Assembly (NCBI GenBank): GCA_965205975.1
Contig: OZ242195.1
Location: forward strand, 2,240,001 to 2,304,000
From: Candidatus Latescibacterota bacterium
Lineage (GTDB): Bacteria; Latescibacterota; UBA2968
Length of the DNA stretch: 64,000 nucleotides
Reading direction: 5' to 3'
Below the pieces are notes generated by a model that saw only the letters and a list, made by a program, of their open reading frames with translations, was not told where the DNA came from and made no database searches. Below, piece after piece: positions 1-19,839 of the stretch (its first letter is position 1; every line of letters starts with the position of its first letter). The translations under genes and the position numbers were made by a program.

Positions 1-1
1 T

Positions 2-880
2 ATTTTAGTACTCATCGACGACCCCAAAAAAGAAATTATCGAACCTCTCTTTGACGAAGGCCATCCCAAGATCGTCGATTTCGAACTCATGATGAATGGG
101 GGACACCTCAAATATCACTTAATCGACAATAAAAAAGACATCGCGCGTATTGCCCAAAAACTCGCCAAACGCATTGAACCCAATTACATCCATCAAAAGT
201 ACGGCGTCGGAAACGAAACACTCCTCTACGCCATGGGGGATGGCAACCACTCATTTGCCGCCGCGCAAAAAGCATGGAAAAAAATCAAATCAACACTCAA
301 TGATACACAACGCACAACACGACATCCGGCCAGACACGCCATGGTCGAATTGATCAACCTGCACGACGACGCGATAGATATAGAGCCAATCCACAGATTG
401 ATCACCCGCATTGATCCAAAGACCACATGCAACACCCTCGTCGCACTGCTCAACACATCGGGCACCCGGGCGCATCTGGAAAAAGTCTCATCGCCCGACG
501 CGCAACATCAGCGCACCGCAGCCCTATCATCTGCATCCACCCATTGCCTCCCCTATCGCGCCGCGGGAGACCTGGGCATACTCGTAATTGAAAACCCATC
601 CCAAAGAACCATACCCGAAACAATGGAAGCCGCGCTCGACCTGTTCACGCGAGAAAACACCGAAGCCGAAGTCGGATTTATCCACGGCGAAGACGTGATT
701 GACGACCTCGGCAACAAACCCGACGCCCTCGGCTTTTACATGCCACCCATTTCAAAGGACAGTGTCTTCGAATCTATCGTTCGTTACGGCGCCTATCCCC
801 GAAAATCCATATCCATCGGCCACGCCGACGAAAAGCGTTACTATATGGAATGCCGAAGCCTTATCCCTGCTAAACGATAA
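2..880 (+). CDS. DUF1015-family protein (5'-truncated by window edge)
   Basis: Frame is open from base 2. YAMGDGNHS motif, HRL motif and C-terminal PRKS.S.G...EKRYY.E are typical of DUF1015 proteins. Confidence 0.7.
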   Translation: MLVLIDDPKKEIIEPLFDEGHPKIVDFELMMNGGHLKYHLIDNKKDIARIAQKLAKRIEPNYIHQKYGVGNETLLYAMGDGNHSFAAAQKAWKKIKSTLNDTQRTTRHPARHAMVELINLHDDAIDIEPIHRLITRIDPKTTCNTLVALLNTSGTRAHLEKVSSPDAQHQRTAALSSASTHCLPYRAAGDLGILVIENPSQRTIPETMEAALDLFTRENTEAEVGFIHGEDVIDDLGNKPDALGFYMPPISKDSVFESIVRYGAYPRKSISIGHADEKRYYMECRSLIPAKR

Positions 881-920
881 TATATGATGATTTCAATTGC
901 AATTCAGATATAGGAGATAT

Positions 921-2162
921 ATGACTGAGATATACGACATGATCATTGTTGGCGCGGGACCAGCAGGCGCGACAGCGGCGTTATACGCCCATCGCGCGGG
1001 ACTCAATGTCTGTCTGGTGGATAAGGCGCGATTTCCGCGAGATAAAATCTGTGGTGATGCGCTATCGGGCAAAGTCGTGTCGATTTTACACGAACTCGAC
1101 TTATTCGATCAGATCGCGCGATTGCCTGGCGCGACCATTCGAGAAGTCGTATTTGGCAGCCCGAATCACGTGGATGCGCGTGTGGATTTGCGGCGGTATG
1201 ACCACCGGGATCAGGCCACGGGCAAAATACTGCCGATGGAAGGGTTTGTGATCCGGCGCGAGATACTGGATAATTTTCTCTTTGAAGAAGCCCAAAAAAT
1301 TGTACGCACCTGTTATGAGGGATTTGCCGTTAAAGACCTGATACTGGAAAACGAGCAAATTGTGGGCGTGCGCGGCGTGGTGGATGGCCGGGAACGCGAA
1401 ATACATGGCCGCGTCGTGCTCGGCTGCGATGGTTTTAATTCAATGGTCGCACGCAAAGCGGGATTGTACGCCCATGATGCCGTCCATTGGGTCGTAGCGA
1501 TTCGCTGTTATTACGAAAATGTGGCGGGTCTGGGGGATCAAATCGAGTTACATTTTGTGGATGAAGTCTTGCCTGGCTATTTCTGGATTTTCCCGCTGGA
1601 AAATGGGACGGCAAATGTGGGCATTGGCATGCGTCACGATGTATTGAAAAAGCGGCGTGTGGATTTAAAAGTAGCACTAAACGAAGTAATCAACCGCTCG
1701 CCTTATGCCCATCGGTTCAAAAATGCGCGTCCAACAGAAGACCCGGTGGGATGGAATCTGCCAGTGGGAAGTACTCGTCGAAAAAGTTATGGAAATGGCG
1801 TATTGCTTTTGGGCGATGCCGCGGGATTGATCGACCCCTTTACGGGCGAGGGAATTGGCAATGCACTGTATTCCGCGCGTTTCGCCGTAGATGCCGTGCA
1901 AGAAGCCATTGCAGCAGACAATTATTCAGCAGCTTTTCTAAGGCATTACGAAGACCGATTATGGGATGCAATAGGCGATGAATTGGCGACCAGCACGCGA
2001 ATGCAAAAATTGGGACAATGGCGTCCCCTCCTCAATTTTACCATCCACAAAGCCGCACACAACGACAAAGTGCGCGATCTAATCTGTGGCATGATGGCCA
2101 ATGCCGTCCCCAAAAAACAACTCACCAATCCCCTGTTTTATTTGAAACTGCTGTTTAGTTGA
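921..2162 (+). CDS. Geranylgeranyl reductase-family FAD-dependent oxidoreductase
   Basis: GAGPAG Rossmann motif, FPRDKICGD, GYFWIFP, LLGDAAGLIDPFTGEGI. ATG at 921 follows AGGAG. Confidence 0.85.
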   Translation: MTEIYDMIIVGAGPAGATAALYAHRAGLNVCLVDKARFPRDKICGDALSGKVVSILHELDLFDQIARLPGATIREVVFGSPNHVDARVDLRRYDHRDQATGKILPMEGFVIRREILDNFLFEEAQKIVRTCYEGFAVKDLILENEQIVGVRGVVDGREREIHGRVVLGCDGFNSMVARKAGLYAHDAVHWVVAIRCYYENVAGLGDQIELHFVDEVLPGYFWIFPLENGTANVGIGMRHDVLKKRRVDLKVALNEVINRSPYAHRFKNARPTEDPVGWNLPVGSTRRKSYGNGVLLLGDAAGLIDPFTGEGIGNALYSARFAVDAVQEAIAADNYSAAFLRHYEDRLWDAIGDELATSTRMQKLGQWRPLLNFTIHKAAHNDKVRDLICGMMANAVPKKQLTNPLFYLKLLFS

Positions 2163-2181
2163 ACCATTTGTATTCTCAGGT

Positions 2182-2366
2182 AACGTCATGTGTGACTTCA
2201 AGATCAGTGGCCAATTAGCCCTGTCATTCTGAGCGGAGCGCAGCGGAGTCGAAGAATCTGCTGCCTCAACGGCGTTTATGGGTAACAGATGCTTCGTCAG
2301 CCTATCGGCTTCCTCAGCATGACATGGTGTAGTAGCACATTTACTTTTAAAGTCACACATCGCGTT
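2182..2366. mobile_element. MITE-like element with internal REP-like hairpin
   Basis: 22-bp terminal inverted repeats AACGTCATGTGTGACTTCAAGA / TTTTAAAGTCACACATCGCGTT (18/22). Flanking direct repeat TCTCAGGT (2174-2181 and 2367-2374). Internal stems TGTCATTCTGAG/CTCAGCATGACA and CGAAGAATCTG/CAGATGCTTCG. Confidence 0.75.
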
Positions 2367-2385
2367 TCTCAGGTAATGAAAAACC

Positions 2386-3900
2386 ATGAAACGAATTTTA
2401 ATATGCTGGATCGGCAACACAGACTTGCTAGCCTCTGAAGGGGAAGATGTAGGTGTGGGACCTATCGCTCAGGCACTGGACAAGCGCGAATTTGACGAGG
2501 TCTTTTTCATCTCAGATTATGAAGATACCCGCGTAAAGCCTTACATCAACTGGATAAAAAAAAGAGTCCCAACACCACACAAACTATTTTATCGACAACT
2601 TTCAAGCCCCACCCACTTTGGAGAAATTTACGAGATTGCCGCAAGCGTCTGTCAGGAAGCCCTAAACCAATATGGTGATCAAACAGAACTGACCTTCCAC
2701 CTCAGCCCCGGCACGCCAGCAATGGCCGCGGTATGGATCATCTTGTCGAAAACGCGCTTTCCCGCTGAATTGATTGAATCCTCAAGAGCGCACGGCGTTC
2801 AAACCACCTCTGTTCCCTTCGATATTTCTGCAGAATTTTTGCCGACCCTCCTGCAAAAGCCCGATGCAGAACTCCGCTCATTAAACGAAGAAAAGCCCAC
2901 AGAATCAGCGAACTTTGGAGACATAATATACAGAAGCCCAGTCATAGCTCGCGTGGTCAAAAAAGCGCGACGTGCTGCCGTGCGAGATATTCCCGTCTTA
3001 TTCGAAGGGGAATCTGGCACGGGAAAAGAACTCTTTGCACGCGCCATTCACCAGAACAGTCCGCGAAAAGAGGGACCATTTATCGCCGTAAATTGCGGTG
3101 CAATTCCCCCCAATCTCGTGGAATCTGAACTGTTTGGGCACAAGGGAGGTGTGTTCACAGGTGCCCCTGATGATCGCAAAGGCCACTTTGAAGAGGCAAA
3201 TAAAGGCACCATCTTTTTGGATGAAATTGGCGAATTGCCCAAAGATATACAGGTAACAATATTGCGCGTCTTACAAGAAGGAGAGGTCGTGCGACTCGGT
3301 GAATCCAAACCCAGAAAAGTAGATGTACGCATTGTTGCGGCGACAAACCGGAATCTCATTGAGGAAGTTGGTGAAGGACGGTTCCGCGAGGACCTGTTCT
3401 ATCGGCTTGTAGTAGCCTATCTCAAATTGCCCCCACTGCGCGAACGCGAGGGAGATATGGGGCTGTTGATTGACCATTCGCTCGAATTGATTAACCAGGA
3501 GAATGAAACGCAACCCGGCTACAAACATAAAAAAATTTCCGCTGGCGCAAGAAATCTTATCTTCAATTACCATTGGCCCGGCAATATACGCGAGTTACAA
3601 AACACGCTCAGACGCGCAATGGTGTGGACAGATGGAGAAACTCTTACACGACAGGACATTGAAGAAGCCCTCTTACCTCCGTTTGGAAAACGAGATGACG
3701 GTATCCTGAATCGCCCTCTGGATGCGAATTTCAGCTTGCCCGATCTGATTGATGAAGTTGCAAAACACTATCTTAATCGCGCTTTACAAGAATCAAAAAC
3801 AAAAAAAGAAGCCGCCGAACTCGTTGGCCTACCCAGTTACCAGACCCTCGCCAACTGGGCAAAAAAATACGGCGTAGCAATTGAAAAAAAAAGAAAATAG
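2386..3900 (+). CDS. Sigma54-dependent enhancer-binding protein with N-terminal RtcR/CARF-like sensor domain
   Basis: Walker A GESGTGKE, ESELFGH, GVFTGA (GAFTGA variant), FLDEIG, FREDLFYRL, WPGNIREL and a C-terminal HTH. N-terminal MKRILICWIGNTD...HLSPGTPAM resembles RtcR-type CARF domains. Confidence 0.85.
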   Translation: MKRILICWIGNTDLLASEGEDVGVGPIAQALDKREFDEVFFISDYEDTRVKPYINWIKKRVPTPHKLFYRQLSSPTHFGEIYEIAASVCQEALNQYGDQTELTFHLSPGTPAMAAVWIILSKTRFPAELIESSRAHGVQTTSVPFDISAEFLPTLLQKPDAELRSLNEEKPTESANFGDIIYRSPVIARVVKKARRAAVRDIPVLFEGESGTGKELFARAIHQNSPRKEGPFIAVNCGAIPPNLVESELFGHKGGVFTGAPDDRKGHFEEANKGTIFLDEIGELPKDIQVTILRVLQEGEVVRLGESKPRKVDVRIVAATNRNLIEEVGEGRFREDLFYRLVVAYLKLPPLREREGDMGLLIDHSLELINQENETQPGYKHKKISAGARNLIFNYHWPGNIRELQNTLRRAMVWTDGETLTRQDIEEALLPPFGKRDDGILNRPLDANFSLPDLIDEVAKHYLNRALQESKTKKEAAELVGLPSYQTLANWAKKYGVAIEKKRK

Positions 3901-3936
3901 AAAAATTTTTAAAAAAATATCCAATTTTAGCGTGTA

Positions 3937-3953
3937 TTGGCACGAAATATGCA
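3937..3953 (+). promoter_or_regulatory. Sigma54 (-24/-12) promoter
   Basis: TTGGCACGAAATATGCA versus consensus YTGGCACG-N4-TTGCW with correct GG-to-GC spacing. Lies just downstream of the sigma54 activator and points into the ATPase array. Confidence 0.8.
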
Positions 3954-4042
3954 TGAACAATGGGCGTGACAGCGACGCGGACTCCCGTCACCTGAAAGAA
4001 TTTCTTGACAAAACTGATGTGTTAGCGAAAAAATCAGTATGC

Positions 4043-4141
4043 TGACCCATTCCAAATCGTAGAAAGTTGGATATTCCCAAAATTTGTCAACCTCAAGTGT
4101 TTCAGACAAGCCTGAACGTTTTTTTCACCTTGTGAGAAATT
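4043..4141 (+). repeat. Conserved cassette leader, copy 1
   Basis: 99 bp, colinear and about 90% identical with 6915-7013. Last 75 bp match 9771-9845. Ends at the ATPase ATG. Confidence 0.9.
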
Positions 4142-5860
4142 ATGGCTATTACATCTATCACCATTGAGAACTTCAAGGGCATTGGCGATGCCGTGACCAT
4201 TCCCATTCGCCCCGTCACCTTGTTGTTTGGTAAAAACAACTCGGGCAAGTCAACAGTGTTGCAGGCATTGCGTTATTTACGCAAAATTTACGAATGCGAA
4301 TATCTAAAATTTGAAGAAAAGTTAGAGGCATTACAAGATCAAGAAAGAGGCGAATCAAAATTGGAGGCCCACTACTCTCTACTCACTTTGTTGCAGGAGT
4401 TACCCAATCTTCGTACCCACCTCAGTACTCGTAATTTTCGCGAAATTCAAAAAATTATATCGCAAGAGATATTAAATCTTGATCTATCCAACTTTGACTC
4501 CCTACGCGACAAAGCTCTAAAATCCATGCAAGAAGAATTCTACTCAACATACGTTGAGCTTGCCTCAGAAGACGATTTTCTTAACGAAGATTCCGATTAT
4601 GGGGAATATGGAGAAATCAATCCAGATCACTTTACTGCGTTGGGGAATTTTTCATCCCTTGTGCATCGCCATGAGTTAGATCGGAAAATTCGAATTCGTC
4701 TTGAATTTGACATAAAACCCGAACAATTGACAAGTTCGAATAGTATTTTGCATCGTGCTATAAGGCCGGAGGAAGTGACGAATCCAAAGTCCGCGTGGAT
4801 AGAAATGATAACAGGTTGGGACGAAAAACAAGGGATTATTTATCTCGATTCATACAAGTACGCTTTGAACGGCGTAGAATGGATTTGTCTTACACCAATG
4901 GATAGACCATTACCTGATAAAGACAGATGGAATTATGAAAGGCGGTTTACAGACCTAAACATATATTCAAATCCTAATCATCCGTTCACAGTCACCCAGG
5001 CAATTGAGTTTGGTCTGAGTCAAAGTGAATTTCTGAAAGATTTCTCTTGGCTTCTCGGCACTGATAGTAGTGAGGGTAAAAAATTGGGTTTGAGCGAAAG
5101 TAATAAAAAAAAGATACGATCTTGGTTGGAGGCACATGAGAGCGAAGATATCGTAAAGAATATAGTTGAAGAATTACATCGCATTTTGGGAGAATTATGT
5201 GATATACAACATTTAGGACCTGTGCGAGATATTCCACGTCGGGATTATGCCCCATACTCATATGAAGAATTGCGATGGGCAACAGGACTACAGGCATGGG
5301 ATGTACTGGTAGGAAAACCTCAATTGGTCAAAAAGATAAACCAATATATGAAAAATTTAGCTCTTGGATATAGCTTCAAGCTATCTGAAGACCGCAAACA
5401 GAGGATGCAACTTTATGATGAGACCCATAAAATATACCTTCATCCCTTAGATATCGGTTTTGGTATCTCTCAAGTTATTCCAGTCGTGGTCGGTGCGTTA
5501 GATGACACATCTCAGATTTTCGCGGTTGAACAACCAGAGCTTCACGTTCACCCTGCCGTTCAAGTGGCTTTAGGCGATGTGTTCATTGATGGCATACAAA
5601 ACAGCAATCGCACTATCCTCATTGAAACGCATTCAGAGCACTTGCTACTGAGGATTATGAGGCGGATGCGTGAGACTTTTGAAGATAGGATTGAAGAAAA
5701 TCGTTTCCCTATAACCCCCGATGATATTGCCGTGCTATTCGTCGAATGGCATGATTCGCAAACAATCATACGAGAAATGCCTGTTAATGAACGCGGAGAA
5801 TTGGTAAAAGCCTGGCCGGGCGGTTTCTTTGAAGAAGATATAGAAGAGGTATTTGCTTAA
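4142..5860 (+). CDS. ABC/AAA-type ATPase (AAA_15/AAA_21 with DUF3696-like C-terminus), cassette 1
   Basis: ITIENFK, Walker A GKNNSGKS, signature IGFGISQ, AVEQPELHVHP, IETHSEH, C-terminal WPGGFF. Confidence 0.85.
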   Translation: MAITSITIENFKGIGDAVTIPIRPVTLLFGKNNSGKSTVLQALRYLRKIYECEYLKFEEKLEALQDQERGESKLEAHYSLLTLLQELPNLRTHLSTRNFREIQKIISQEILNLDLSNFDSLRDKALKSMQEEFYSTYVELASEDDFLNEDSDYGEYGEINPDHFTALGNFSSLVHRHELDRKIRIRLEFDIKPEQLTSSNSILHRAIRPEEVTNPKSAWIEMITGWDEKQGIIYLDSYKYALNGVEWICLTPMDRPLPDKDRWNYERRFTDLNIYSNPNHPFTVTQAIEFGLSQSEFLKDFSWLLGTDSSEGKKLGLSESNKKKIRSWLEAHESEDIVKNIVEELHRILGELCDIQHLGPVRDIPRRDYAPYSYEELRWATGLQAWDVLVGKPQLVKKINQYMKNLALGYSFKLSEDRKQRMQLYDETHKIYLHPLDIGFGISQVIPVVVGALDDTSQIFAVEQPELHVHPAVQVALGDVFIDGIQNSNRTILIETHSEHLLLRIMRRMRETFEDRIEENRFPITPDDIAVLFVEWHDSQTIIREMPVNERGELVKAWPGGFFEEDIEEVFA

Positions 5861-6813
5861 TGGCTTTATTTTCTGAGTATGCTGTAACACCTGATGTATT
5901 CAATGAGAGTTGTTATGATTCTCCGGCATTGTGTGACGTACATTTTAAACAATTGCTGGAAGTTTTTTTGAGTGAAGGGCTCGTTCGAAATCTTCGCAAT
6001 GGCGAATGGCAAGCGTTCTTTTCAACCCATGCAAGACCCTGGCACGGCCGTACAAAGCATATTTTGAAAAATTTGATAGATGCTGGTCGTTTGGTACCAA
6101 GTGACCCAGCATCAAGTCACACTCCTCAGACTGATCGTGGATGGTGCAACGAGGCGTTAGAGTCACATAAAACCATACCTTTGAATGGCATTATAGTAAG
6201 CGATGACATTCAAAGGACCTATCGCAGAAATCAGTTGGTTGAAAGTGTGAGCAGACTATCGCAATCTACCTGCGCGTGGTGGGAACCCACAAATAGTTCG
6301 CTTCGATTAGAACGTACTATCAGTCAGTATATAGACGCTCTTAAACTGATTCTCAAACACGCTAAATCCATTATGTTTATCGACCCCAATATCGATCCGG
6401 CAAAGAACAACTATGCTGATTTTGTACAATTACTTGAAGCAGCAGGTAATAGACCATCACAATCACCCCAGCCACTCGTTGAGATACACCGCAAAAGTCT
6501 TCGCGGCTCTGGGAAAAATGCTCCTGTATGGGATCAACAAGATATGGAGAATACATTTCGAACCGAATTTGGCCCAGTTCTTTCGCAGTCAAACTTAAAA
6601 GCAGAAGTCTTTATATGGGATGATTTTCATGATCGTTATCTGATCAGCAATTTAGGGGGAATACTGGTCCCCTATGGATTTGACACGTCAAGCAAGCCTG
6701 ATGACTTAACTACCTGGTCACGACTTGGACGATCAGATCGAGATGATGTACAGCGCGAATTTGCTCGCGAGAGTAATAAACACAAACTGCAGTTTAATTT
6801 TACTATACCGTGA
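5860..6813 (+). CDS. Hypothetical protein with PLD-like (MIT_C-type HDR) domain, cassette 1 partner
   Basis: TAATG overlap with the ATPase. IMFIDPN and FHDRYLISNLGG motifs are shared with the other two partners. Confidence 0.6.
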   Translation: MALFSEYAVTPDVFNESCYDSPALCDVHFKQLLEVFLSEGLVRNLRNGEWQAFFSTHARPWHGRTKHILKNLIDAGRLVPSDPASSHTPQTDRGWCNEALESHKTIPLNGIIVSDDIQRTYRRNQLVESVSRLSQSTCAWWEPTNSSLRLERTISQYIDALKLILKHAKSIMFIDPNIDPAKNNYADFVQLLEAAGNRPSQSPQPLVEIHRKSLRGSGKNAPVWDQQDMENTFRTEFGPVLSQSNLKAEVFIWDDFHDRYLISNLGGILVPYGFDTSSKPDDLTTWSRLGRSDRDDVQREFARESNKHKLQFNFTIP

Positions 6814-6914
6814 AATAGATACCTGACCGAACAATGGCTTGAAGGCGTCCGGGACCAATTGTATTTTTTATTTCACTACTCCCCGACTTTATAGGGTAAC
6901 ATTGATTGGTTTGT

Positions 6915-7013
6915 TGACCCATTCCTAATCGGAGAGAGTTGGATATTCCAAAAGTTTGTCAACCTCAAGCGTTTCGGACAAACCTGAACATTTTTTTCAG
7001 CTTGTGAGAAATC
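6915..7013 (+). repeat. Conserved cassette leader, copy 2
   Basis: Colinear with 4043-4141. Confidence 0.9.
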
Positions 7014-8720
7014 ATGGCTATTACATCTATCACCATTGAAAATTTCAAAGGCATCGGCGATAAAGCCGTGACGATTCCCCTTCGCCCCATCACCTTATTA
7101 TTTGGCAAAAACAGCGCGGGCAAGTCAACAGTGTTGCAGGCAATGCGCTATTTACGTGAAATATACGAAAGTCTGAAAATTGAAGAACCATTGCCGGAAA
7201 TGCGTGATCGCGAAAAAAACGAAGATATGGAACTTGAGCCAAGGTTGCGTAAAATTTATAAACTACATGACCGGTTGAAAGCAGCGCACTTTTTATATTT
7301 AGACGACCCATCTAACTATAGTAAAATTTCAAGTTCTGTACAAAAAATTATATCAGAAGATATATCAAATATATCGCAGACTGATCCTCTAGACTTTGAA
7401 TCTCTACGTGGCGAAGCTCTAAAATTCCTACAAACAGTAGAAGATGATATAGATGATTGGGTAGATGATTGGATAGATGATTGGGTAGATAAAAAAGGAG
7501 TAAGTGATCTAGACCACCTTACTAAGTTGGGCGATTTTCATTCTCTGGTACATTGCCAGGATCTGAGTCGGAAAATTCGAATTCGTCTTGAATTTGACAT
7601 AAAATCCGAACAATTGGAAAATTTGAACGATATTTTGAATCTTGCGATGAAATCGATGAAGGGAACAAATCCGGAGTCCGCCTGGATAGAAATGATAACA
7701 GGTTGGGACAAAAAACATCAGAAAGTCTATCTTGATTCATATACGTATGCTTTGAACGGCGAAGAGTGGATTTGTCTCACGATGAACAGATCCAGGCAAG
7801 ATGAAGCGGAATGGAATCATGAAGGGCAGTTTATAAATTTAGACATATATTCAAAGAATTTCGGCTTGAGTGAATGGATGAAAGACCTCTCTTGGCTTCT
7901 CGGCACTAATAATAGTGAGGGTAAAAAATTCGGCCTGAATGAAAGTAAGGTAAAAAATATAAGGCCTTGGTTGAAGCAGTGTGTATTCGAAGATAGATCA
8001 AAGGGTATACTAAAAAATTTGCATAATATTGTACTCGGAGCATTGAAGGACATACGATATTTAGGGCCAGTGCGAGGTGTGCCACGTCGCACTGGCGACT
8101 CATCAGATGGGTCCGAAGATCCAAAGGGATTATGGGCCTGGCGTGATCTTAAACAAGATCCTCAATTGCTGAAAAAGACAAATCACTATATAAAAAAGTT
8201 AGCCCTTGGATACAGCATCAGGCAACCTAAAGATGACGATCATGAGGTTCAACTTTATGATGAAACTCATAAGATATACCTCCATCCCTTAGATGTTGGC
8301 TTTGGCATCTCTCAGGTCATTCCAGTTATGGTCGGTGTGTTAGATGACACGTCTCATATTTTTGCAGTTGAACAGCCAGAGCTTCACGTTCACCCTGCCC
8401 TTCAAGTCGCTTTGGGCGACTTATTCATTGACGGCATAAAAAACAGCAATCGCACCCTGCTTATTGAAACGCATTCTGAGCACTTGATGTTGCGATTGCT
8501 GCGGCGCGTGCGTGAAACAACCCGTCGTAGCAGACGCCGCCAGACCACCGACTTAGAACAGACAGCTCACGAATTGACACCTAATGACCTTTCTGTGGTC
8601 TATGTTCGGCCAACGCCAGCAGGCGTTAAATTCACGCCACTCACTGTAACGAATGACGGTGATTTTGATGCACCATGGCCAGAAGGCTTTTTCGAAGAAC
8701 GTGATTCGGAGTTGTTTTAA
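7014..8720 (+). CDS. ABC/AAA-type ATPase (DUF3696-like), cassette 2
   Basis: GKNSAGKS, VGFGISQ, AVEQPELHVHP, IETHSEH, WPEGFF. Paralog of 4142-5860. Confidence 0.85.
   Translation: MAITSITIENFKGIGDKAVTIPLRPITLLFGKNSAGKSTVLQAMRYLREIYESLKIEEPLPEMRDREKNEDMELEPRLRKIYKLHDRLKAAHFLYLDDPSNYSKISSSVQKIISEDISNISQTDPLDFESLRGEALKFLQTVEDDIDDWVDDWIDDWVDKKGVSDLDHLTKLGDFHSLVHCQDLSRKIRIRLEFDIKSEQLENLNDILNLAMKSMKGTNPESAWIEMITGWDKKHQKVYLDSYTYALNGEEWICLTMNRSRQDEAEWNHEGQFINLDIYSKNFGLSEWMKDLSWLLGTNNSEGKKFGLNESKVKNIRPWLKQCVFEDRSKGILKNLHNIVLGALKDIRYLGPVRGVPRRTGDSSDGSEDPKGLWAWRDLKQDPQLLKKTNHYIKKLALGYSIRQPKDDDHEVQLYDETHKIYLHPLDVGFGISQVIPVMVGVLDDTSHIFAVEQPELHVHPALQVALGDLFIDGIKNSNRTLLIETHSEHLMLRLLRRVRETTRRSRRRQTTDLEQTAHELTPNDLSVVYVRPTPAGVKFTPLTVTNDGDFDAPWPEGFFEERDSELF
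7443..7490 (+). repeat. 12-bp in-frame tandem repeat (DDIDDWVDDWIDDWVD)
   Basis: GATGATTGGRTA x3 preceded by GATGATATA. Confidence 0.85.
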
Positions 8721-8722
8721 TT

Positions 8723-9706
8723 ATGCTGAATATTTTTGCTATTGATCCCAAAATATGTCAAAATTTGGAGTGGTTTCGATATTGCACGGAGCACTGTCAG
8801 CCGTCACAAGGACGTGCAATTGCAGATTTACCGTATGACCAATGGTATGAAAATGCGTTTGCGATCATTCAAGACCTTCAACTTCCTCCTATGGAAGAAA
8901 AAAGCCTGAAAAGGCGTCTGGATCTGGTGCGAGCACAACTGGTAAATCGTCCAAGAACTGATTGGACAGATTGGTATTATGATGATTTTTCAAAATTTCC
9001 CTGGATTGCCGAAGTAGAGAAGGAGCATCAGCGAGCGCGTTTTTCTGCCGTTGTCAGCCCTGATTACGAGGGGGCTGATGATACGGAACTCAAGTATCAT
9101 CCTGATGAACTCAATAGAACCGTAGAGGCCTAGAATACTCCCAGTGGCGTTTCAATTACGCGCAGCCCTGGAGACTTCGTAAATGCCATTCTGCCAATGC
9201 TTCGGATTGCTCGGAATATTCACTTTTTGGATCGATATTTTAACGTGGACAGTAACAGTTCATTTACCCAAAATTACACGCAGATGATCCAGGATTTAGC
9301 CTCATATTGTGATTCCTTTCCATCACTGACAATCCATTGCTGCCCAGACGAAAATGATACGCCTGATTCACGTTACTTTGAAAATGAACTGAATAAGCAC
9401 TACGCGTCCTTAATACCAACAGGAAAATCTGTAAAGGTTCTTTTGTGGCAAACAAATCAAGATGCCCAAATAGAAAGAGGTGCTCATCCCTTTCACAATC
9501 GCTATGTGCTATCTAATCATTGCGGTGTCATTGCGGGATATGGTACGGATAGTGCAAAAGCACCGACTGATGCACCAGATGTCCTTCAGATTGTTGACCA
9601 CAAAATATATTTAGAAATGTGGAATCAAATTCGGGATGAAACATTTCCTATGATCCACATTGAGGAGGAAAACAAGTTTGTGATTAACGGTACTAAAAGC
9701 GCGTGA
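8723..9706 (+). pseudogene. PLD-like partner of cassette 2, interrupted by in-frame TAG at 9131-9133
   Basis: ORFs 8723-9133 and 9197-9706 are in the same frame with an open linker (NTPSGVSITR...). The stop aligns with the Trp of paralogs (AWDDPPSS, AWWEPTNSS), consistent with TGG>TAG. IHFLDRYF and FHNRYVL motifs present. Confidence 0.8.
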
Positions 9707-9739
9707 TTAACAGCGTATAATACGATACCGAAAAATTGA

Positions 9740-9765
9740 GACCTGTCATAAACGACGGGCTGCAA
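9740..9765 (+). repeat. Truncated copy of the array terminator 5' arm
   Basis: GACCTGTCATAAACGACGGGCTGCAA is 22/26 identical to 12039-12064. Confidence 0.75.
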
Positions 9766-9770
9766 TTGTT

Positions 9771-9845
9771 TTAGATATTCCAAAAATTTGTCAACCCCAA
9801 GCGTTTTAGACAAACCTGAACGCTTTTTTCACCTTGTGAGAAATC
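9771..9845 (+). repeat. Conserved cassette leader, copy 3 (5'-truncated)
   Basis: Colinear with 4067-4141. Confidence 0.9.
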
Positions 9846-11072
9846 ATGGCTATTACATCTATAACTATTGAAAATTTCAAGTGCATCGGCGATGCCGTGA
9901 CCGTTCCCATACGCCCCATCACCTTGTTATTTGGCAAAAACAGTTCGGGCAAGTCAACTGTGTTGCAGGCACTCCTCTATCTACGCAAAATATGCAAAGC
10001 AGAACCAGAACCCTGGGAATTAGGTGGCAGAGGCGAGGGCTATGGCAGTGGTAGTGGCGAGCTTTTTGGCGGAGACTCTGATAGAGTTAGTAGCGATAGC
10101 AATAGAGAAATCGATCCAAACCACTTTAGAGGATCGGACGATTTTCGTTCTCTGGTGCATCGCCAGGAATTAGATCGGAAAATTCGAATTCGTCTTGAGT
10201 TTGGCATAAAATCAGAGGATGTGACGAAGTCGAAATCCGCATGGATAGAAATAATAACAGGATGTGACGGAGAACTACACATCAAACCTGATAAAACTGC
10301 GTTGCAGCAGTGTAGGCGCGAATTGCGAGACCTATTAGAGTTAGGACCAGTGCGAGATGTGCCAAAGCAGGCTCTTGGATCAACGTCTGATTTTGCTAAA
10401 GGTACCTGGACAACAGGGTTAGAGGCCTGGTATATACTTGCACAAGATCCCCAATTGCGAGAAAAGACAAACCACTATATGAAAAAGTTAGCACTTGGAT
10501 ACAGTTTCAGGTGTTCTGAAAACGGTGAACACGAAATTCAACTTTATGATGAAACCCATAAGATAGACGTTCATCCTTTACATGTTGGTTTTGGCATTTC
10601 GCAAGTCATTCCAGTCGTGGTAGGTGCATTAGAAAGTTCCCGTCGGCTTTTCGCAGTTGAACAGCCAGAGCTTCACGTTCACCCTGCCCTTCAAGTCGCT
10701 TTGGGCGACTTATTCATTGATGGAATAAAAAATAGCAATCGCACCATGCTCATTGAAACGCATTCTGAACACTTGTTGTTGCGATTGCTGCGACGTGTAC
10801 GTGAGACTAATGTTCGTAACTCGAAAAAATACGAATGGCGACAAAGTTCAATGTCCCCTCTACACCAAGAGATGTCAGAGGCCGCCATTCGTGACGCAGA
10901 AAATCAAGACTCAAAAGATCACCAATTGACGCCAGACGATCTGTCTGTGGTCTATGTTCGACCAACGCCAGCAGGAGTTAAATTCACTCCACTCGCTGTA
11001 ACGAATGACGGCGATTTTAATGCACCATGGCCAGAAGGCTTCTTCGACGAGCGAGTGGAGGAACTTTTATGA
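9846..11072 (+). CDS. ABC/AAA-type ATPase (DUF3696-like), cassette 3, shorter central region
   Basis: GKNSSGKS, VGFGISQ, AVEQPELHVHP, IETHSEH, WPEGFF. Confidence 0.85.
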   Translation: MAITSITIENFKCIGDAVTVPIRPITLLFGKNSSGKSTVLQALLYLRKICKAEPEPWELGGRGEGYGSGSGELFGGDSDRVSSDSNREIDPNHFRGSDDFRSLVHRQELDRKIRIRLEFGIKSEDVTKSKSAWIEIITGCDGELHIKPDKTALQQCRRELRDLLELGPVRDVPKQALGSTSDFAKGTWTTGLEAWYILAQDPQLREKTNHYMKKLALGYSFRCSENGEHEIQLYDETHKIDVHPLHVGFGISQVIPVVVGALESSRRLFAVEQPELHVHPALQVALGDLFIDGIKNSNRTMLIETHSEHLLLRLLRRVRETNVRNSKKYEWRQSSMSPLHQEMSEAAIRDAENQDSKDHQLTPDDLSVVYVRPTPAGVKFTPLAVTNDGDFNAPWPEGFFDERVEELL

Positions 11073-12001
11073 CAAAAGAACAGCGCGATAATAAAAAGCT
11101 GATTCATGATTATGCGTTAGAACCCGAACTGATCGCAAATTGCGATCAATTCTTATTTCGATACCTTACCCAATACAAAAAATTTGGCTGGGACACAGGC
11201 TGCATCGTAGTTCAATACCCCAATCACTGGCGAGAACTGGTTGAGAGACTATTCAATGATAACAAACGGTCCGAACTATTGCTGACGCGTTTGCTTAGAA
11301 CAAAGGCCGTACGCCATGACTCCACGTGGAACGATTTATTCCCTTGGATTGAAAACGCTGCAAACGAAAAAAGTCCCCATCCGTTTCATGTGATCTTGGC
11401 CCACAATAATCCTAACCCACAGAAATGGTCCAACATCGTATGCGCGGAAGATATTTCTCTCGGAGATGATAGAGCTTGGGACGATCCTCCTTCTTCAGCC
11501 ACAGTAAATCGGACTGCTACTTCAATGGCAGCTTGCATTGAGCCTCTGCTAAGATATGCAACGCAAATTCATTTCATTGATCCACATTTTTGCCCGTTGC
11601 AAGATAGATTCAAGAATCCTTTAAGTAAATTCCTAAAAATCATTTGTCACGATAGCCATGAGGTCTCACTCGAATATCACACCTTAGCTGACAACACATT
11701 GTGCTGGAAAGATTTTCAACAGAAATGCGAAGATGAGCTTCCTCATCTAATTCCTAAAGGTTTTACGCTCACTGTCCGCCGTTGGAAAAACAGGGTCGGA
11801 GGTGAGCGTTTTCATAATCGCTATATCCTCACTAACATCGGTGGTGTAGCTTTCGGTAATAGTATCGCCGAAGCTCCGAAAGGAGAGGATAATATCTCCC
11901 GCTTGAGTGAAATTGATTCTCAAAGATGGCTCAATAAGTACTCTGGTGACTCACCTGCATTTGATCTGGAGGGAGAAGTAAATATAAAAAGCACACTATG
12001 A
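11069..12001 (+). CDS. PLD-like (HNR) hypothetical protein, cassette 3 partner
   Basis: ATGA overlap with the ATPase stop. DYALEPE, IHFIDPHF and FHNRYILTNIGG motifs. Confidence 0.6.
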   Translation: MTKEQRDNKKLIHDYALEPELIANCDQFLFRYLTQYKKFGWDTGCIVVQYPNHWRELVERLFNDNKRSELLLTRLLRTKAVRHDSTWNDLFPWIENAANEKSPHPFHVILAHNNPNPQKWSNIVCAEDISLGDDRAWDDPPSSATVNRTATSMAACIEPLLRYATQIHFIDPHFCPLQDRFKNPLSKFLKIICHDSHEVSLEYHTLADNTLCWKDFQQKCEDELPHLIPKGFTLTVRRWKNRVGGERFHNRYILTNIGGVAFGNSIAEAPKGEDNISRLSEIDSQRWLNKYSGDSPAFDLEGEVNIKSTL

Positions 12002-12038
12002 AGAATCAGATAATTGGTGGAAAATAAGACAGAAGAGT

Positions 12039-12089
12039 GACTTGTCACAAACAACGGGTTGCAAGTATTCGAGGCAAGTCTCTTTTTTT
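12039..12089 (+). terminator. Probable intrinsic terminator closing the array
   Basis: GACTTGTC...GGCAAGTC stem with a large loop, followed by a T7 run. Confidence 0.55.
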
Positions 12090-12122
12090 ATTAGTGGGAG
12101 GAATGGGCGGACTAACAACTAC

Positions 12123-12149
12123 GGGCGGGCACAGGAGCACCGCCCCTAC
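12123..12149 (-). repeat. GTAG-type REP-like palindrome
   Basis: Minus strand reads GTAGGGGCGGTGCTCCTGTGCCCGCCC, with a GGGCGG/CCGCCC stem after GTAG. Confidence 0.55.
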
Positions 12150-12197
12150 AGCCTTGGAATGGCTGGATGGACTAATAACTGACTGCTGATCACTACT

Positions 12198-13703
12198 CTA
12201 ACCAAACGCCTCTTGCAAATACCCCAAATCGAGTTCGGGATAAACCGGGAATCGCTCGAGAAGATTGGCGATCCTCTGTTGGGCGTCTTCGAGCACACCA
12301 TCCTGAATCCTGTATTGGACCTTACTAAACTGTCCCGCACTTCTGCCCTTCGTGAACTTCAATGGCCGTGCATGGGTGAGCACATTGCCCATGACCGCGC
12401 CGATCTCTCGCATCTCTTCTGCCCCCATACCAAGCGTCGTAAGCGCCGGTGTCCCAACCCTGAGACCACTGGTGTACCATGGACCATTGGGATCAAAGGG
12501 AATCGTATTTTTATTCAGCGTAATCCCGGCATCGCGGAGCAAGGTTTCGGCCTGGCGACCCGTGAGATTAAAAGGCGTAACATCAATCTGCAGCAAATGA
12601 TTGTCAGTACCCCCAGTAAGAACTGTAAGCCCCGCATCCATACACGCCTGTGCGAGCACCCGGGCATTATCGACAATACTGGCGGCATAAGCACAAAATT
12701 CAGGCGTACTCGCCTCCTCAAACGCGACAGCTTTGGCCGCCATCACATGAGGCAGTGGACCACCGAGCACCATCGGGCAGCCTTTATCGACCTGTTCGGC
12801 AAATTCTTCCGTACACAAAACCATACCCCCTCTGGGACCGCGCAGGGTTTTGTGTGTGGTCGTCGTAACGACATGGGCATGGGCAACCGGATCAAAATCG
12901 CCCGCGAAAACTTTGCCAGCAACCAGCCCGGCAAAATGCGCCATATCGACCATAAAAACAGCCCCCACTTCATCGGCGATTTCCCGGAAAATGCGGAAAT
13001 TAATTTTGCGCGGATATGCACTATAACCCGCTAAAAGAATCAAAGGTTTGATCTCTCTGGCCTGGTCGCGGACTTCATCGTAGTCGATCAGGCCAGTTTC
13101 TTTATTCACCGTGTATGCATGTGCCTCAAACATGCGCCCAGACACATTGATGCGATAGCCGTGCGTGAGATGCCCCCCGGATGAAAGATCCAGCCCCAGG
13201 AGCTTTTGATTGCCCAATTGCGTGCGAAGCACGCCCCATGCTTCATCCGAAAGATCAAACGGCGATTTTTTCCCCATTTCTTCGAGTGCGACATCTTGAA
13301 CGCGCCCCGAAAGAATCGCCCAAAAAGCGACCATATTGGCATCTGCGCCCGAATGGGGTTGAACATAAGCGTGATCCGCACCAAAGAGATCGCACGCCAG
13401 TTTTGCAGCCTGACTTTCGATCGCATCTACATTATCACAACCCGCGTAAAAGCGGTGATCGGGAATCCCCTCGGCGTATTTGTCAGTCAGCAAATTGCCC
13501 ATAGCCAGTTGCGTGGGCAAAGAACAATAATTCTCGCTCGCAATCATTTTGAGATTGGAACGCTGGTCGGCCAACTCGCGTACAATATTTTTTGCCACAT
13601 CGGGCGATACGGAGGCGACCTGTTCCAGCGAGGCCAAATAGGCGACAAATCCGGGATTTGGGGTGGAATTTTGAGACAGATAGTTGGCAAGGGTGCTGGA
13701 CAT
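12198..13703 (-). CDS. glyA: Serine hydroxymethyltransferase
   Basis: [48 protein letters not shown]. Confidence 0.97.
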
Positions 13704-13732
13704 GGATGTTCTCCTCGTATTTGGCCCGATAC

Positions 13733-13775
13733 AAAAATAGCCCGGGCTGTGTGTGGATTTTCATAAGCCCAGGCG
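13733..13775 (-). terminator. Riboswitch-controlled intrinsic terminator upstream of glyA
   Basis: Minus strand GCCTGGGCT...AGCCCGGGC followed by TATTTTT. The 5' arm overlaps the aptamer 3' stem. Confidence 0.7.
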
Positions 13776-13848
13776 ATCGGCTATCGGATGAAGAGCGCTG
13801 CGCTTCCCCGTGGTCGATTCCACGTTCATTCGCCAGTCACGCAGACCC
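13767..13848 (-). ncRNA. ZMP/ZTP (pfl) riboswitch
   Basis: Minus strand GCGTGACTGGCGAA..GTGGAATCGACCACGGGGAAGCGC...GCCGATCGCCTGGGC matches the pfl consensus. Lies upstream of glyA, a typical target. Confidence 0.9.
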
Positions 13849-13860
13849 TTGTCAAAAATC

Positions 13861-13888
13861 AATATACAGAATTGCAGACCAAAGTCAA
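13861..13888 (-). promoter_or_regulatory. Putative sigma70 promoter for riboswitch-glyA
   Basis: TTGACT-16nt-TATATT with TG just before the -10. Confidence 0.5.
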
Positions 13889-13895
13889 CGGTTTG

Positions 13896-15323
13896 TTAGG
13901 ACGTAAAAAAACGCCAGCCCCACAAAATAAGGGGATAGCCCGCAACAAAAATAACACGCGCAATAACACCCTCTATTGACGTATCGTGAAGATATGGGGA
14001 TAACACCAAAAAAACGACTGCCCCCGCAATACATATTTTCCCCAAACGCCCGTACTCGTAGGGAACCGGATAAAACCGACGCACGATGAGATAAAGCAAA
14101 ACTGTCATCAAAACATGCGCGACAAGCGTACTATAAGCAGCGGCAATAAATCCGAGTTTGGGTAAAAGGAAAATATTAATAGCGATATTCACACACGCAC
14201 CCATCCCCACAATAAACGGCAGAGATCCTGCCCGACCTTCGGCATATACACCCGCGGTGAGAATGATATAAAGACCGTGAAAGAAAAATGCCAGCCCCAC
14301 CAGCGGGACAACCCGTATGCCTTCGAGATAAGTCTGTGCATTGTCGCCAGTGATCAGAACGATTATTTCGCGTGCAAAAGTGGCTAATATCAGACAGCCA
14401 AAAATACCGAACAACGTGAAATACGTGGTGACACGCGCACACATCTGCCGCGTATCTTCCTCTGTATTTTCATCCTCGGTTTCGTCGAGCACGGCAGGTG
14501 CCCAGGCAGAGCGAAACGCTTTAACCACAAAATAGATGGGCAAACCGAGTTTATAGGTAATGCCGTAAATACCCAGATCGTCGAGGTCCAAAAAAAAGCG
14601 GATTAGAAAGCGGTCAGACAGGCTAATGATGAGAAAAGAAAAGGCCGAGGGTACAAAAGGCAGGCCAAAATGCAGAAGTTCGCGCAACGCGCGCATATCA
14701 AAAGTTGGACGAATTAAGCGCAGTCCAACGGGAAACATGACAATAAGTGCAAAGAGAGAACTGATGAAATTGGCTTCAAAAACCGCGACAGGCCCGCGTC
14801 CAAGACCGGCGATGAAATACGCGGTGAGACCGAGTTGTAGCGTGTGTTGAATCACCCGCACAATCGCATAGTGAAAGGATCGCTGTCGAGCGCGACAAAG
14901 CGTGAAAAGGGGTTCTGACAGCGCGTCCAAAAGGACAACGGCGGCAATAAGTTCGAAGATCGCACTGTAATCCGAACTGCCCAAAAGATGATGCGCGAGA
15001 CTCTCCGCATTGATCCAGACCAGACTCGACAGAATAACACCTGTGGCGAATAGTGCCCAAAATGCGGAGCTAAATGCGGCGCGATATTTGCCGAGATCGG
15101 CCTTGCCAGATAAGAGGCGGACCAGCGCGGGATTGAGACCGAGAGAATAAAAAACCGCGCTAAATCCAATAAATGCAAATGCCAGGGACAAAATGCCATT
15201 ATCAGCAGGTGTGAGATGCCTGGCATAGATGGGTACGAGCAAAATGGACACAGCGCGACCGAGCAGATCGCCCATGCCATAGACTGCCGTGTGTTGTGCG
15301 AGGGATTTAATTCGAGAGAACAT
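13896..15323 (-). CDS. Oligosaccharide flippase (Wzx/MOP family)
   Basis: Polytopic membrane protein with LLVPIYARHL, SDRFLI...LGIY and NIAINIFLLPKLGFIAAA. Confidence 0.85.
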   Translation of the reverse strand: MFSRIKSLAQHTAVYGMGDLLGRAVSILLVPIYARHLTPADNGILSLAFAFIGFSAVFYSLGLNPALVRLLSGKADLGKYRAAFSSAFWALFATGVILSSLVWINAESLAHHLLGSSDYSAIFELIAAVVLLDALSEPLFTLCRARQRSFHYAIVRVIQHTLQLGLTAYFIAGLGRGPVAVFEANFISSLFALIVMFPVGLRLIRPTFDMRALRELLHFGLPFVPSAFSFLIISLSDRFLIRFFLDLDDLGIYGITYKLGLPIYFVVKAFRSAWAPAVLDETEDENTEEDTRQMCARVTTYFTLFGIFGCLILATFAREIIVLITGDNAQTYLEGIRVVPLVGLAFFFHGLYIILTAGVYAEGRAGSLPFIVGMGACVNIAINIFLLPKLGFIAAAYSTLVAHVLMTVLLYLIVRRFYPVPYEYGRLGKICIAGAVVFLVLSPYLHDTSIEGVIARVIFVAGYPLILWGWRFFTS

Positions 15324-15333
15324 AATTCACCGC

Positions 15334-17778: not shown

Positions 17779-17787
17779 AGAAACAAA

Positions 17788-18744
17788 CTATCGGCCTATC
17801 TGCGAGTTAGAAGGCTTTTCGTCGAGTTCTTCGACTTTGATGAGCGTGCGGGAAATGGTCAAGCGAAGGCCGCGTTCGGGTGGGCTGGCAAATTCGAGAG
17901 GCTGGTTCTGCAGTGAAAGCGAAATTGAGCCAGCACGCTGTATCTCCACTTGAAAGCGGTCATGGGCCAGCCAGCGTTGCTCCAGGTCGGGTGAAAGCAC
18001 ACCAGTAAAAACCCCGCGACCATCGGCAGTAATGGATAGATGCACGGTTTCACTTGCAACGCCAGAAAGAGTCATGATTTGCTCCGCAGCAATGACGCCG
18101 GGAATGGGCAAATTATATGTGGAGAGCACAGCGAGTGCTGGTTGGGAAGTTGGCGTCTCCTCCACAATATCCGGTGGCATCATCTGGTTTTCCAATAGAG
18201 GTTGAGATGGCATAACAGACTCCGTGCTGTCTCGTAGTTGCATCTCTTGTACGGCGTTCGCACTGTCCTTCTCTGCTTCGGAAATATTTATTTCTTCGAG
18301 TGGGATAACCGATTCCGTGCTATCTGGTATTGGAAGAGGTGATGTGGTTGTATCGAGCGGCACTGTGAGCGGTGTTTCTTCACGCGAGTTAAGAATGATG
18401 ATCACCACTGCAATCACCGCGAATGCGAGTAAAGAGATAAATATTGCGCTGCGGTTTATCCCGCGTTCTGGAGGGGACTGTACTGTGACCCGCTCGCGCG
18501 GCAACGCAACGCTTCTGTCAAAAAGAATAAGGATGTCCCGAACATTGAGGTTGAGTTCTTGGGCATAAGTTTTGAGAAACAAACGCGCGTAAGCTAAGGG
18601 CAATAAATCAAATTGCCCCGCTTCAAGCACTTTGATAAACTCGGGATTGATCCGCGTGTGTTCATATATATCACCGATACTCAAACCCAGATTCTCGCGC
18701 TGCGTTTTGAGTAATTCACCAATGTCTTGTTTTTCATCTGTCAT
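17788..18744 (-). CDS. RodZ-like HTH membrane protein (DUF4115 C-terminus)
   Basis: N-terminal HTH (IGELLKTQRE...YARLFLKTYAQEL), single TM helix, periplasmic C-terminus. Confidence 0.8.
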   Translation of the reverse strand: MTDEKQDIGELLKTQRENLGLSIGDIYEHTRINPEFIKVLEAGQFDLLPLAYARLFLKTYAQELNLNVRDILILFDRSVALPRERVTVQSPPERGINRSAIFISLLAFAVIAVVIIILNSREETPLTVPLDTTTSPLPIPDSTESVIPLEEINISEAEKDSANAVQEMQLRDSTESVMPSQPLLENQMMPPDIVEETPTSQPALAVLSTYNLPIPGVIAAEQIMTLSGVASETVHLSITADGRGVFTGVLSPDLEQRWLAHDRFQVEIQRAGSISLSLQNQPLEFASPPERGLRLTISRTLIKVEELDEKPSNSQIGR

Positions 18745-19372
18745 AGATGGTTGTATTCCCGTTATTTGTTAGATCTATTTCGGGTATAATCGCCCAAAGC
18801 GATTGCCCGATCAGACGGTGATAAAGGCTCCAAAAACTCGCAAGTGGCAAACCCACCACATTGTAGAAGCAGCCAGAGATGGATTGAATAAATGCAGATG
18901 CACGTCCCTGCGCACCATAAGCACCGGCTTTGTCCATAGAATCGCCAGTGGCGACATAGCGCGAGATATCCTCCGATGAGAGCACGCGCATGGTGACGTG
19001 AGTAGTAGCAACCTCTGTGAGGGTCTGACCGGTTTCCGTATCTGTAAGGGCCAGCCCGGTATAGACTTGATGGGTTTTTCCCGAAAGTTGCGCCAGCATG
19101 TCTTCGGCGTGTTTGGCGTCATTCGGTTTCTCAAAAATCGCATTTTCCAATACCACAACTGTATCGGCACCCAAAATGAGCGCGTGGTCAAAACGATGGA
19201 CAACTGCCTGTGTTTTGCGCTGCGCGATTTCCCTCACATATTCAGCGGGTGGCAAAATAGTATCCAAAGACTCATTCGCATTGCTCGGCGCAATCTCAAA
19301 TGGAATATCCAACAAACGCAACAAACGCGCACGCCTGGGCGAAGCAGACGCGAGAATTAGTCTCTTCTTCAT
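18734..19372 (-). CDS. maf: Maf-family nucleotide pyrophosphatase
   Basis: [29 protein letters not shown]. Confidence 0.95.
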
Positions 19373-19824
19373 ATCTCTGAGTCAATCATCAATGTAACGG
19401 GGCCTGTATTGTAAATTTCGACCTGCATATACGCGCCAAAAACGCCGGTTTCAGTATGAATGCCAAGAGCACAGAAGTGCTGGACAAATTGCTCGTACAG
19501 GGATTTGGCAATATCTGGTGGAGCAGCCCGATTAAAACTCGGACGGCGGCCTTTGCGGGTGTCGGCGTGCAGGGTAAATTGCGAAACCACCAGCGCCTGC
19601 CCACCCGTGTCGAGCAGGGATCTATTCATTTTTCCACGATCGTCCTCAAAAATTCTCAAATTCGCACATTTCTCAGCAACATATTCCATATCCGGCAGAC
19701 CATCGGTATCGCTAATACCCAGCAAAATCAAAAGACCGCCATCAATTTGCCCAACGATTTGTTCTTCAACGCGAACCGTTGCCTCGCACACCCGCTGAAT
19801 CAATGCCCGCACGCTGCCCTCCAT
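19369..19824 (-). CDS. dtd: D-aminoacyl-tRNA deacylase
   Basis: RALIQRV, LRIF, SQFTL, KGRRPSF, GPVT. Confidence 0.95.
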
Positions 19825-19839
19825 TGCTTAAGATGCATG

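Follow-up and report, generated by a model that had tools for sequence, protein, structure and literature searches.

An activator and three gene pairs

The window analysed here, a stretch of 64,000 nucleotides (nt) from a Candidatus Latescibacterota bacterium (contig OZ242195.1, positions 2,240,001 to 2,304,000), contains an accessory island of about 10 kb that consists of a CARF-domain sigma54 activator and three pairs of ABC ATPase and effector genes, all on the plus strand, with the second effector gene broken (Table 1). Each ATPase gene abuts or overlaps the gene of its own partner. The PADLOC model RtcR_PspF2 (PDLC01995) matches the activator over residues 2-497, its whole CARF-AAA+-helix-turn-helix (HTH) architecture, with an expectation value (E) of 2.9e-196; the protein also matches Pfam Sigma54_activat, scores under the cut-off of NCBIfam RtcR, and has the GVFTG variant of the activator loop. 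The island is patchily distributed in its genus, where it is found in 10 of 20 genomes with one to three cassettes per array, and in four of the five island-free genomes checked its flanks are directly adjacent, 16 nt apart. The effector partners occur in 10 of the 20 genomes, nine of which have a full-length activator and the tenth a frameshifted one; no activator was found in the 10 genomes without partners.

Table 1. Features of the island in window coordinates; the last row gives positions in related loci (our L numbers)
Feature	Position	Strand	Basis or remark
Accessory island	2164..12197		between 897-2162, which we take from its translation to be a reductase-like gene, and 12198-13703, likewise presumed glyA-like (minus strand)
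RtcR/PspF2-type CARF-AAA+-HTH sigma54 activator, 504 amino acids (aa)	2386..3900	+	PADLOC, Pfam
Sigma54 -24/-12 promoter-like site, TGGCAC-N5-ATGCA, A-tract before it	3938..3953	+	sequence
GC-hairpin remnant and TTGACA box	3965..4010	+	relatives carry a small-ORF (open reading frame) module here at several cassettes
Conserved leader 1	4040..4141	+	putative 5' untranslated region (UTR) remnant of a repeated unit
ATPase 1, NsnB-like ABC ATPase, 572 aa	4142..5860	+	variable insert; DUF3696 tail of partner-1 type
Effector 1, 317 aa	5860..6813	+	PIN-like (~5-144) and MITD1-type phospholipase D-like (PLD, ~145-291) domains
Degenerate terminator-like copy after partner 1	6815..6870	+	alignment to intact element of relative G019
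Conserved leader 2	6912..7013	+	sigma54 site absent upstream
ATPase 2, NsnB-like, 568 aa	7014..8720	+
Effector 2	8723..9706	+	broken by in-frame TAG (9131-9133) at interdomain linker
Half terminator-like element fused to leader 3 (9771-9845)	9733..9845	+
ATPase 3, NsnB-like, 408 aa	9846..11072	+	shortest insert
Effector 3, 310 aa	11069..12001	+	same family, FHNRY motif; family hidden Markov model (HMM) E 2e-95
Terminator-like hairpin and T-tract	12036..12091	+	-10.8 kcal/mol
Micro-operon of relatives	L040:10478-10942, L036:11495-11957, L037:7997-8906, L035:6809-6880, L032:13371-13900, L080:6024-6095	L037 minus	behind sigma54 site

A sigma54 site of the same type is present in all 10 related arrays. 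The genome of the window has an RpoN box, and a looser sigma54 pattern matches it 48 times. In the relative G019 three cassettes have three sites and four other genomes of the genus have two, and among Acidobacteriota loci, a second phylum, in 14 of 16 cases the site lies 3-43 nt past the stop of the activator gene and shortly before the start of the ATPase gene, an order which argues that the site serves the pair. The leaders of the window are about 89-90% identical over 74-101 nt, and the 5.56 Mb genome has just these three. By alignment they are remnants of a longer repeated unit that originally included the promoter, and in the window cassettes 2 and 3 have lost their sigma54 sites. We rejected the idea that the leader is an integron-like site or a mobile repeat, given its three copies, the lack of an integrase and its alignment as a promoter/UTR remnant.

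In several relatives the interval from the sigma54 site to the ATPase gene holds a 103-aa GIY-YIG ORF, hydrophobic ORFs of 24-45 aa, a TTGAC(A) box and a GC hairpin, and comparison with them indicates that the GIY-YIG/hydrophobic-peptide module was lost from the window by deletion. In the micro-operon of these relatives, the peptide ORFs have strong Shine-Dalgarno sequences and the hairpin has a folding energy of -24 to -30 kcal/mol. The peptides resemble Fst/Ldr type I toxins, an identification for which Pfam gave no support.

A preliminary description of this stretch had read it as an activator, a sigma54 promoter and three ATPase-partner units with conserved leaders, closed by one terminator and lying in an AT-richer block. 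The architecture and the leaders stand, with the corrections that the second partner is broken and that a sigma54 site is found at cassette 1 only. The composition was read correctly as well (42.3% GC in the cassettes against 50.9% in the genome, with only 3 of 694 8-kb windows equally low). The closing hairpin and T-tract exist, with no call there in a terminator scan; they are not single, since partner 1 is followed by a degenerate copy and partner 2 by half a copy.

Both edges of the island have dispersed repeats (window 2213-2325 and 12100-12190, which have 25 and 28 blast matches genome-wide), and short inverted arms lie at 2182-2201 and 2347-2366. In three of four sequencing runs, contig joints lead from 4150 to 7019 and skip cassette 1. 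Because their sides are only 24-30 letters long and lie inside the repeat, these joints may be assembly-graph artefacts, or they may be deletion recombinants, and we did not count them as deletions. Sponge metagenomes hold matching sequence in small shares.

NsnB-like ATPases and two-domain effectors

The ATPases match Pfam AAA_15/AAA_21 and DUF3696, the latter in all three proteins and above the cut-off in one. Their top PADLOC models are NsnB (E of 9e-41, 6e-40 and 9e-44 for ATPases 1, 2 and 3, the last over residues 3-405), PDC-M55A (4e-48 for ATPase 1) and the HEC-03 model (4e-35). Among 83 family ATPases, the GxGxSQ signature is found in most and unmatched in 10, and the eight commonest Walker B motifs hold EQPE. 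In 23 ATPases, the N-terminal core is 81-85% identical and the central insert, 180-371 aa long, 33-36%. The last 45 residues are 77-88% identical within a partner type, 30-31% between type 1 and types 2/3, and closer (72%) between types 2 and 3. An extra insert of 65-194 aa precedes the H-loop in 8 of 24 genus ATPases, and six have an N-terminal extension. Directly upstream of the pair, several related loci encode an ATPase of another family, about 580 aa long (L063:4531-6270, L090:4525-6264, L093:4477-6216, L111:122-1918).

The three partners are 19-23% identical to one another and, as the preliminary description had noted, all keep the motifs [YF]A..P, I.F[IL]D and FH[DN]RY. Library scans gave no informative Pfam, PADLOC or NCBIfam match for the partners of the window, and a search of PDB sequences with the partner profile returned nothing significant; a DddA-like match (E 0.099) was dismissed as chance. 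At E<=0.001 the family comprises 662 proteins for partner 1 and 119 for partner 3. Of 132 homologues, six match MIT_C.

Structure prediction was more telling. The model of effector 1 (predicted local distance difference test 95, from a 132-row alignment) contains a PIN-like domain in residues 5-144 that matches the SMG5 PIN (Z 9.0, root-mean-square deviation (rmsd) 2.9, 107 residues aligned) and many other PINs, followed by a C-terminal domain with the PLD fold, closest to MITD1 (Z 11.5, rmsd 2.8, 131 aligned) and similar to the nucleases SauUSI (Z 10.3) and NucT (Z 9.9). The earlier assignment of a PLD domain is thereby borne out, and the PIN-like N-terminal domain had been overlooked. Residues D175, E208-x-H210, H257-D-R259 and D275 are nearly invariant across the 132 homologues. 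In a sequence alignment of the PIN domain (alignment positions, not coordinates), the only acidic residues that both partner groups retain are at positions 6 and 12; at position 10 one group has T and the other D/E. Effector 3, judging from the alignment, would have the same fold as effector 1.

The TAG codon in effector 2 is read with the same letters in contigs of all four runs, which come from one study and at most two samples, possibly the source of the window itself. Since these contigs agree, a sequencing error is unlikely, and we set recoding aside because relatives have Trp there and other genes read normally. The frame is open in seven orthologues, which are 66-87% identical to the window copy, and the codon is Trp in five of the seven, where the motif matched. 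As a genuine nonsense codon it leaves the window with two intact pairs and one broken pair. Across 11 arrays of the genus, four of the 24 effector genes are broken and none of the 24 ATPase genes.

Genomic context and array evolution

How does the pair occur elsewhere? A genome scan found 174 relatives, of which the best 80 (79 loci) were kept; context was counted in the 72 loci beyond the seven closest. The ATPase gene lies directly upstream of the partner gene in 69 of these, the other three lacking upstream DNA, which bears out the coupling that had been proposed. Upstream of the pair are type I restriction-modification (RM) genes in 32 loci, a CARF activator in 18, an activator fragment in three and neither in 19. 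Because this set is biased toward relatives of partner 1, we also drew even samples of genomes (centres of the samples included). One phylum gave matches in 13 of its 401 sampled genomes, a second in 12 of 301 (three of these matches being partial and weak) and an Acidobacteriota order in 13 of 301. In 16 of 19 evenly drawn loci the ATPase is upstream, with type I RM genes in 12 of those 16, and one such locus has the order activator, sigma54 site, hsdRMS, pair. The lone pair is usually cargo of type I RM operons, in many phyla. An annotated Methylocella plasmid, for instance, encodes WYL, hsdR/M/S, the ATPase, the partner, SIR2 and DUF87. Neighbours match many PADLOC defence families (among 78 hand-picked neighbour proteins, with no background rate), and the defence context suggested at the outset is seen well beyond the genus. 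Homologues of the pair occur on one viral contig, beside RM-like genes, and in plasmid records four times for effector 3 and never for effector 1.

Arrays, which the relatives also have, follow a different habit. Arrays of two to three copies directly behind the activator are found separately in the Latescibacterota-related genus and in Acidobacteriota; all 16 true two-pair arrays lie behind the activator (14 in Acidobacteriota, two in Latescibacterota), an extra count, L119, being a split gene. Within the genus, slot order and effector types are conserved across species.

The variable component of a slot is the ATPase body. Among five genomes, identity is 88-92% for the slot-1 effectors and similar (85-93%) for the activators, and the slot-1 ATPases of the same genomes are only 34-84% identical to ATPase 1 of the window. 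The preliminary description had proposed a specificity array; array expansion is seen, and what varies within a slot is the ATPase body and not the partner. In a quick tree the effectors form three deep clades, and the ATPase cores of the genus all belong to one clade with support of 98-99. The core tree (47 chosen rows, LG+G4, 145 columns) groups by host lineage and needs six changes of partner class, and grouping by partner is rejected (approximately unbiased test, p 0.005). By contrast, the tail tree, built on 48 columns, splits by partner class with one change and support of 99. The DNA of the two ATPase genes of G011 agrees at 89-100% as far as the tail and includes an exact tract of 255 nt, and their partners are 25% identical; the first ATPase of G019 is a mosaic. 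ATPase bodies are mosaic or homogenised between paralogues, with C-terminal tails that track partner type across phyla. The switch from body to tail lies inside the ATPase near the H-loop, which is consistent with an interface between tail and effector and does not prove one.

Several further elements accompany these loci. A conserved ORF of about 94 aa without a Pfam or PADLOC family lies between the sigma54 site and hsdR in loci of the RM type (L059:660-941, L100:806-1087, L146:2188-2535). Three relatives have a PDC-S26 (PD-(D/E)XK) gene added to the array (L040:14153-15364, L037:3704-4933, L033:12890-13552). The genus also has other pairs of an NsnB-like ATPase and a partner, without DUF262 (L048:5391-8492, L049:6204-9045, L050:7494-10439); the family HMM matches none of these partners, two of which have a GHDR/GHGR motif and one of which looks different.

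Relation to known systems and interpretation

The pair most closely resembles part of Menshen (NsnA-NsnB-NsnC), which is defined by NsnA (ParB-DUF262 plus ParBDB) directly upstream of the ATPase (PMC12065111); here and below, statements on published systems refer to the accessible portions of the cited sources. Both consist of an ABC ATPase with a GxG signature and a DUF3696 tail, followed by an effector with PIN-like and MIT_C-like PLD domains, and both are often linked to type I RM. Some Menshen NsnC proteins are described as inPIN, a catalytically inactive PIN-like domain without the D-E-D-D residues, plus PB-PLD1, with the DUF3696 tails of NsnB predicted to grip inPIN (PMC12065111). The GxG signature, DUF3696 and the PADLOC match support reading the ATPase as NsnB, and the match of the PIN plus PLD fold to inPIN plus PB-PLD1 supports reading the effector as NsnC (PMC12065111). 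The effector here shares with NsnC an acidic residue after strand 2 and the HDR motif; its likeness to PB-PLD1 follows the published description. The claim that the system was undescribed therefore does not hold for its two proteins, nor for its regulation, since RtcR-like CARF activators heading defence operons had already been described (PMC11090510). A match to a named system is in this sense partial: the ATPases match NsnB in a PADLOC run, the partners of the window match nothing, and NsnA is absent from the loci examined. Overall, the earlier observation is partly confirmed and its interpretation partly supported.

Unlike Menshen, the loci examined lack NsnA/DUF262, form tandem arrays and have a direct CARF-sigma54 promoter, and their ATPases are larger, with hypervariable inserts and EQ in Walker B where the NsnB of S. 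silvestris has EN. An HMM of DUF262 built from 30 loci gave no match at E<=0.1 in the ORFs of window 1-20000, L031-L050, L058-L129 and L132-L150; as a positive control, it finds the NsnA-like genes of two same-genus three-gene loci at 1e-9. The latter are complete Menshen-type loci (DUF262, ATPase, effector of about 320 aa) in two array-bearing genomes (L188:1222-4491, L189:1176-4376), with ENPE in Walker B of the ATPase and effectors unrelated to those of the arrays. Pairs without NsnA fell outside the search of Li et al. because their loci were seeded on DUF262 (PMC12065111).

Other systems share parts of this design. HEC-03, shown to be protective, pairs an ABC ATPase with a VapC-like PIN nuclease, HEC-03B, whose description mentions no PLD domain, unlike the PIN plus PLD effector here; its ATPase inserts 1 and 2 were proposed as specificity determinants (bioRxiv 2024.01.29.577857). 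HEC-03 and PDC-M55 are alike two-gene systems of ABC ATPase and effector, and the partner in HEC-03 also bears a PIN, yet none of the 132 partner homologues matches the HEC-03/PDC-M55 models at E<=0.01, and the main text of that paper does not mention PDC-M55 by name (bioRxiv 2024.01.29.577857). In PARIS (AriAB), Septu (PtuAB) and PrrC an ABC ATPase likewise controls a nuclease, with ATPase similarity to the present proteins at the level of motifs only; PARIS and PrrC respond to anti-restriction proteins, and PrrC is encoded within a type I RM operon. The effector of PARIS is a TOPRIM protein, unlike PIN plus PLD; that of Septu is HNH and that of PrrC is HEPN. Regulation recalls loci of the CoCoNuT paper, where a CARF-AAA+-HTH gene lies upstream of co-oriented defence genes that include type I RM; unlike those, the arrays carry only ATPase-effector pairs and no McrBC/CoCoNuT genes, and the sigma54 promoter is duplicated per cassette in relatives of the window (PMC11090510). 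The parts and the regulatory theme are thus already in print. We found no description in the literature of an NsnB plus PLD pair without NsnA or of its arrays, nor, in the sources accessible to us, of the habit as RM cargo or the body/tail mosaicism; classifications of ABC ATPases or CARF proteins, or the Menshen supplement, may list the pairing.

We consider it reasonably probable that the island is an inducible anti-phage locus of the abortive-infection type, with an NsnB-like ATPase and an inPIN-PLD effector operating without NsnA, induced through sigma54, sensing through its inserts and cutting nucleic acid. The signal bound by the CARF domain would come from stress and, if RtcR is a guide, would probably be RNA ends that bear 2',3'-cyclic phosphate; the sigma54 promoter would then be opened by the AAA+ domain. 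For RtcR-like CARF activators upstream of defence superoperons, induction by such ends has been put forward as a hypothesis (PMC11090510). ATPase dimers might grip the PIN-like domain through their DUF3696 tails and so hold the effector off, with the hypervariable inserts of the body acting, like AriA in PARIS, as a phage sensor, here in place of NsnA, a sensing role proposed for inserts of other ABC ATPase systems (bioRxiv 2024.01.29.577857). A trigger would then free or activate the HxR-type PLD domain, leading to nucleic acid cleavage, cell arrest and an aborted infection. The pair would mostly serve as a back-up within type I RM operons; in two lineages it has been multiplied directly behind the activator, with recombination between paralogues swapping ATPase bodies and leaving tail and effector together. 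More tentatively, the array could be a set of immune receptors that arose separately in two phyla under an RNA-damage CARF-sigma54 switch; hypervariable ATPase sensors would recombine and plug by a conserved tail into fixed, ancient PLD effectors, gene conversion between neighbours yielding new combinations of sensor and effector; we regard this as possible rather than probable.

Several points weigh against the anti-phage reading. The defence activity is a prediction from sequence and context. The partners of the window lack library matches, and PADLOC NsnC matches only 12 of 132 homologues, weakly and over the PLD domain (best 1.3e-4). A modelled PLD fold does not show nuclease activity, and the catalysis of MITD1, the best structural match, is unproven. 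The lost sigma54 sites and the degenerate terminator after cassette 1 mean that cassettes 2 and 3 may be weakly expressed, and the conserved TTGAC(A) box may drive sigma54-independent expression. Physical linkage by itself would suffice to make tails and partners co-segregate, relaxed selection could account for the variable inserts, and the contrast between broken effector and ATPase genes is small and among kin.

The ATPase might also be a transducer only, with the type I RM complex or a DUF262 protein elsewhere as sensor and CARF induction as the main trigger in arrays. RM genes do precede many pairs (32/72 and 12/16 loci), a DUF262 match exists somewhere in 54 of 74 pair-bearing genomes, the genome of the window has two such genes, and Li et al. 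assign Menshen sensing to NsnA; yet the same paper does not predict binding of NsnA to NsnB (PMC12065111). Moreover, 20 of the 74 genomes, many of which are incomplete, have no match, the DUF262 genes of the window's genome are stand-alone, encode 585-640 aa and lie about 1.8 Mb away, and the arrays lack RM genes even though ATPases are their most diversified part. We judge this alternative unlikely, if the most serious of those considered. Less likely still is a dormancy module, selfish or toxin-antitoxin-like, that is induced by stress, partly in decay and not specifically anti-phage, and in which ATPase mosaicism would be a by-product of tandem repeats. The broken effectors and insertion sequences seen in four of the 11 arrays, the promoter deletions in the window, the small hydrophobic peptide ORFs with hairpins in relatives and the general response of RtcR-type regulators to RNA damage would fit such a module; the strong defence neighbourhood across many phyla, the near-invariance of catalytic-type residues over 132 homologues and the conservation of slot order and effector types between species would not. 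Finally, it seems very improbable that the PLD domain is no nuclease and instead has membranes or other phosphodiesters as its target or, like MITD1, binds without catalysis: the top structural matches do include MITD1, FAM83 and true phospholipases D, and HxR replaces HxK, but the nucleases SauUSI, NucT, Nuc, Zucchini, NgoAVII and BfiI are no more than about 1-4 Z units away, nucleases are the effectors of related ABC ATPase systems, and a BrxL HKD variant with a K-to-R change has been read as a DNase (PMC12839542).

If the anti-phage reading is right, the NsnB-NsnC core of Menshen works without NsnA as a widespread two-gene system, present in about 3% of sampled genomes in two phyla, with an effector side that current PADLOC, Pfam and NCBIfam models miss. 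The locus would then offer a minimal case for asking whether defence genes respond to RtcR-like CARF activators and whether MIT_C/BrxL PLD domains of the HxR type have catalytic activity. Moreover, the swapped ATPase bodies on near-identical effectors provide a natural series for mapping how ABC ATPase sensors gain specificity.

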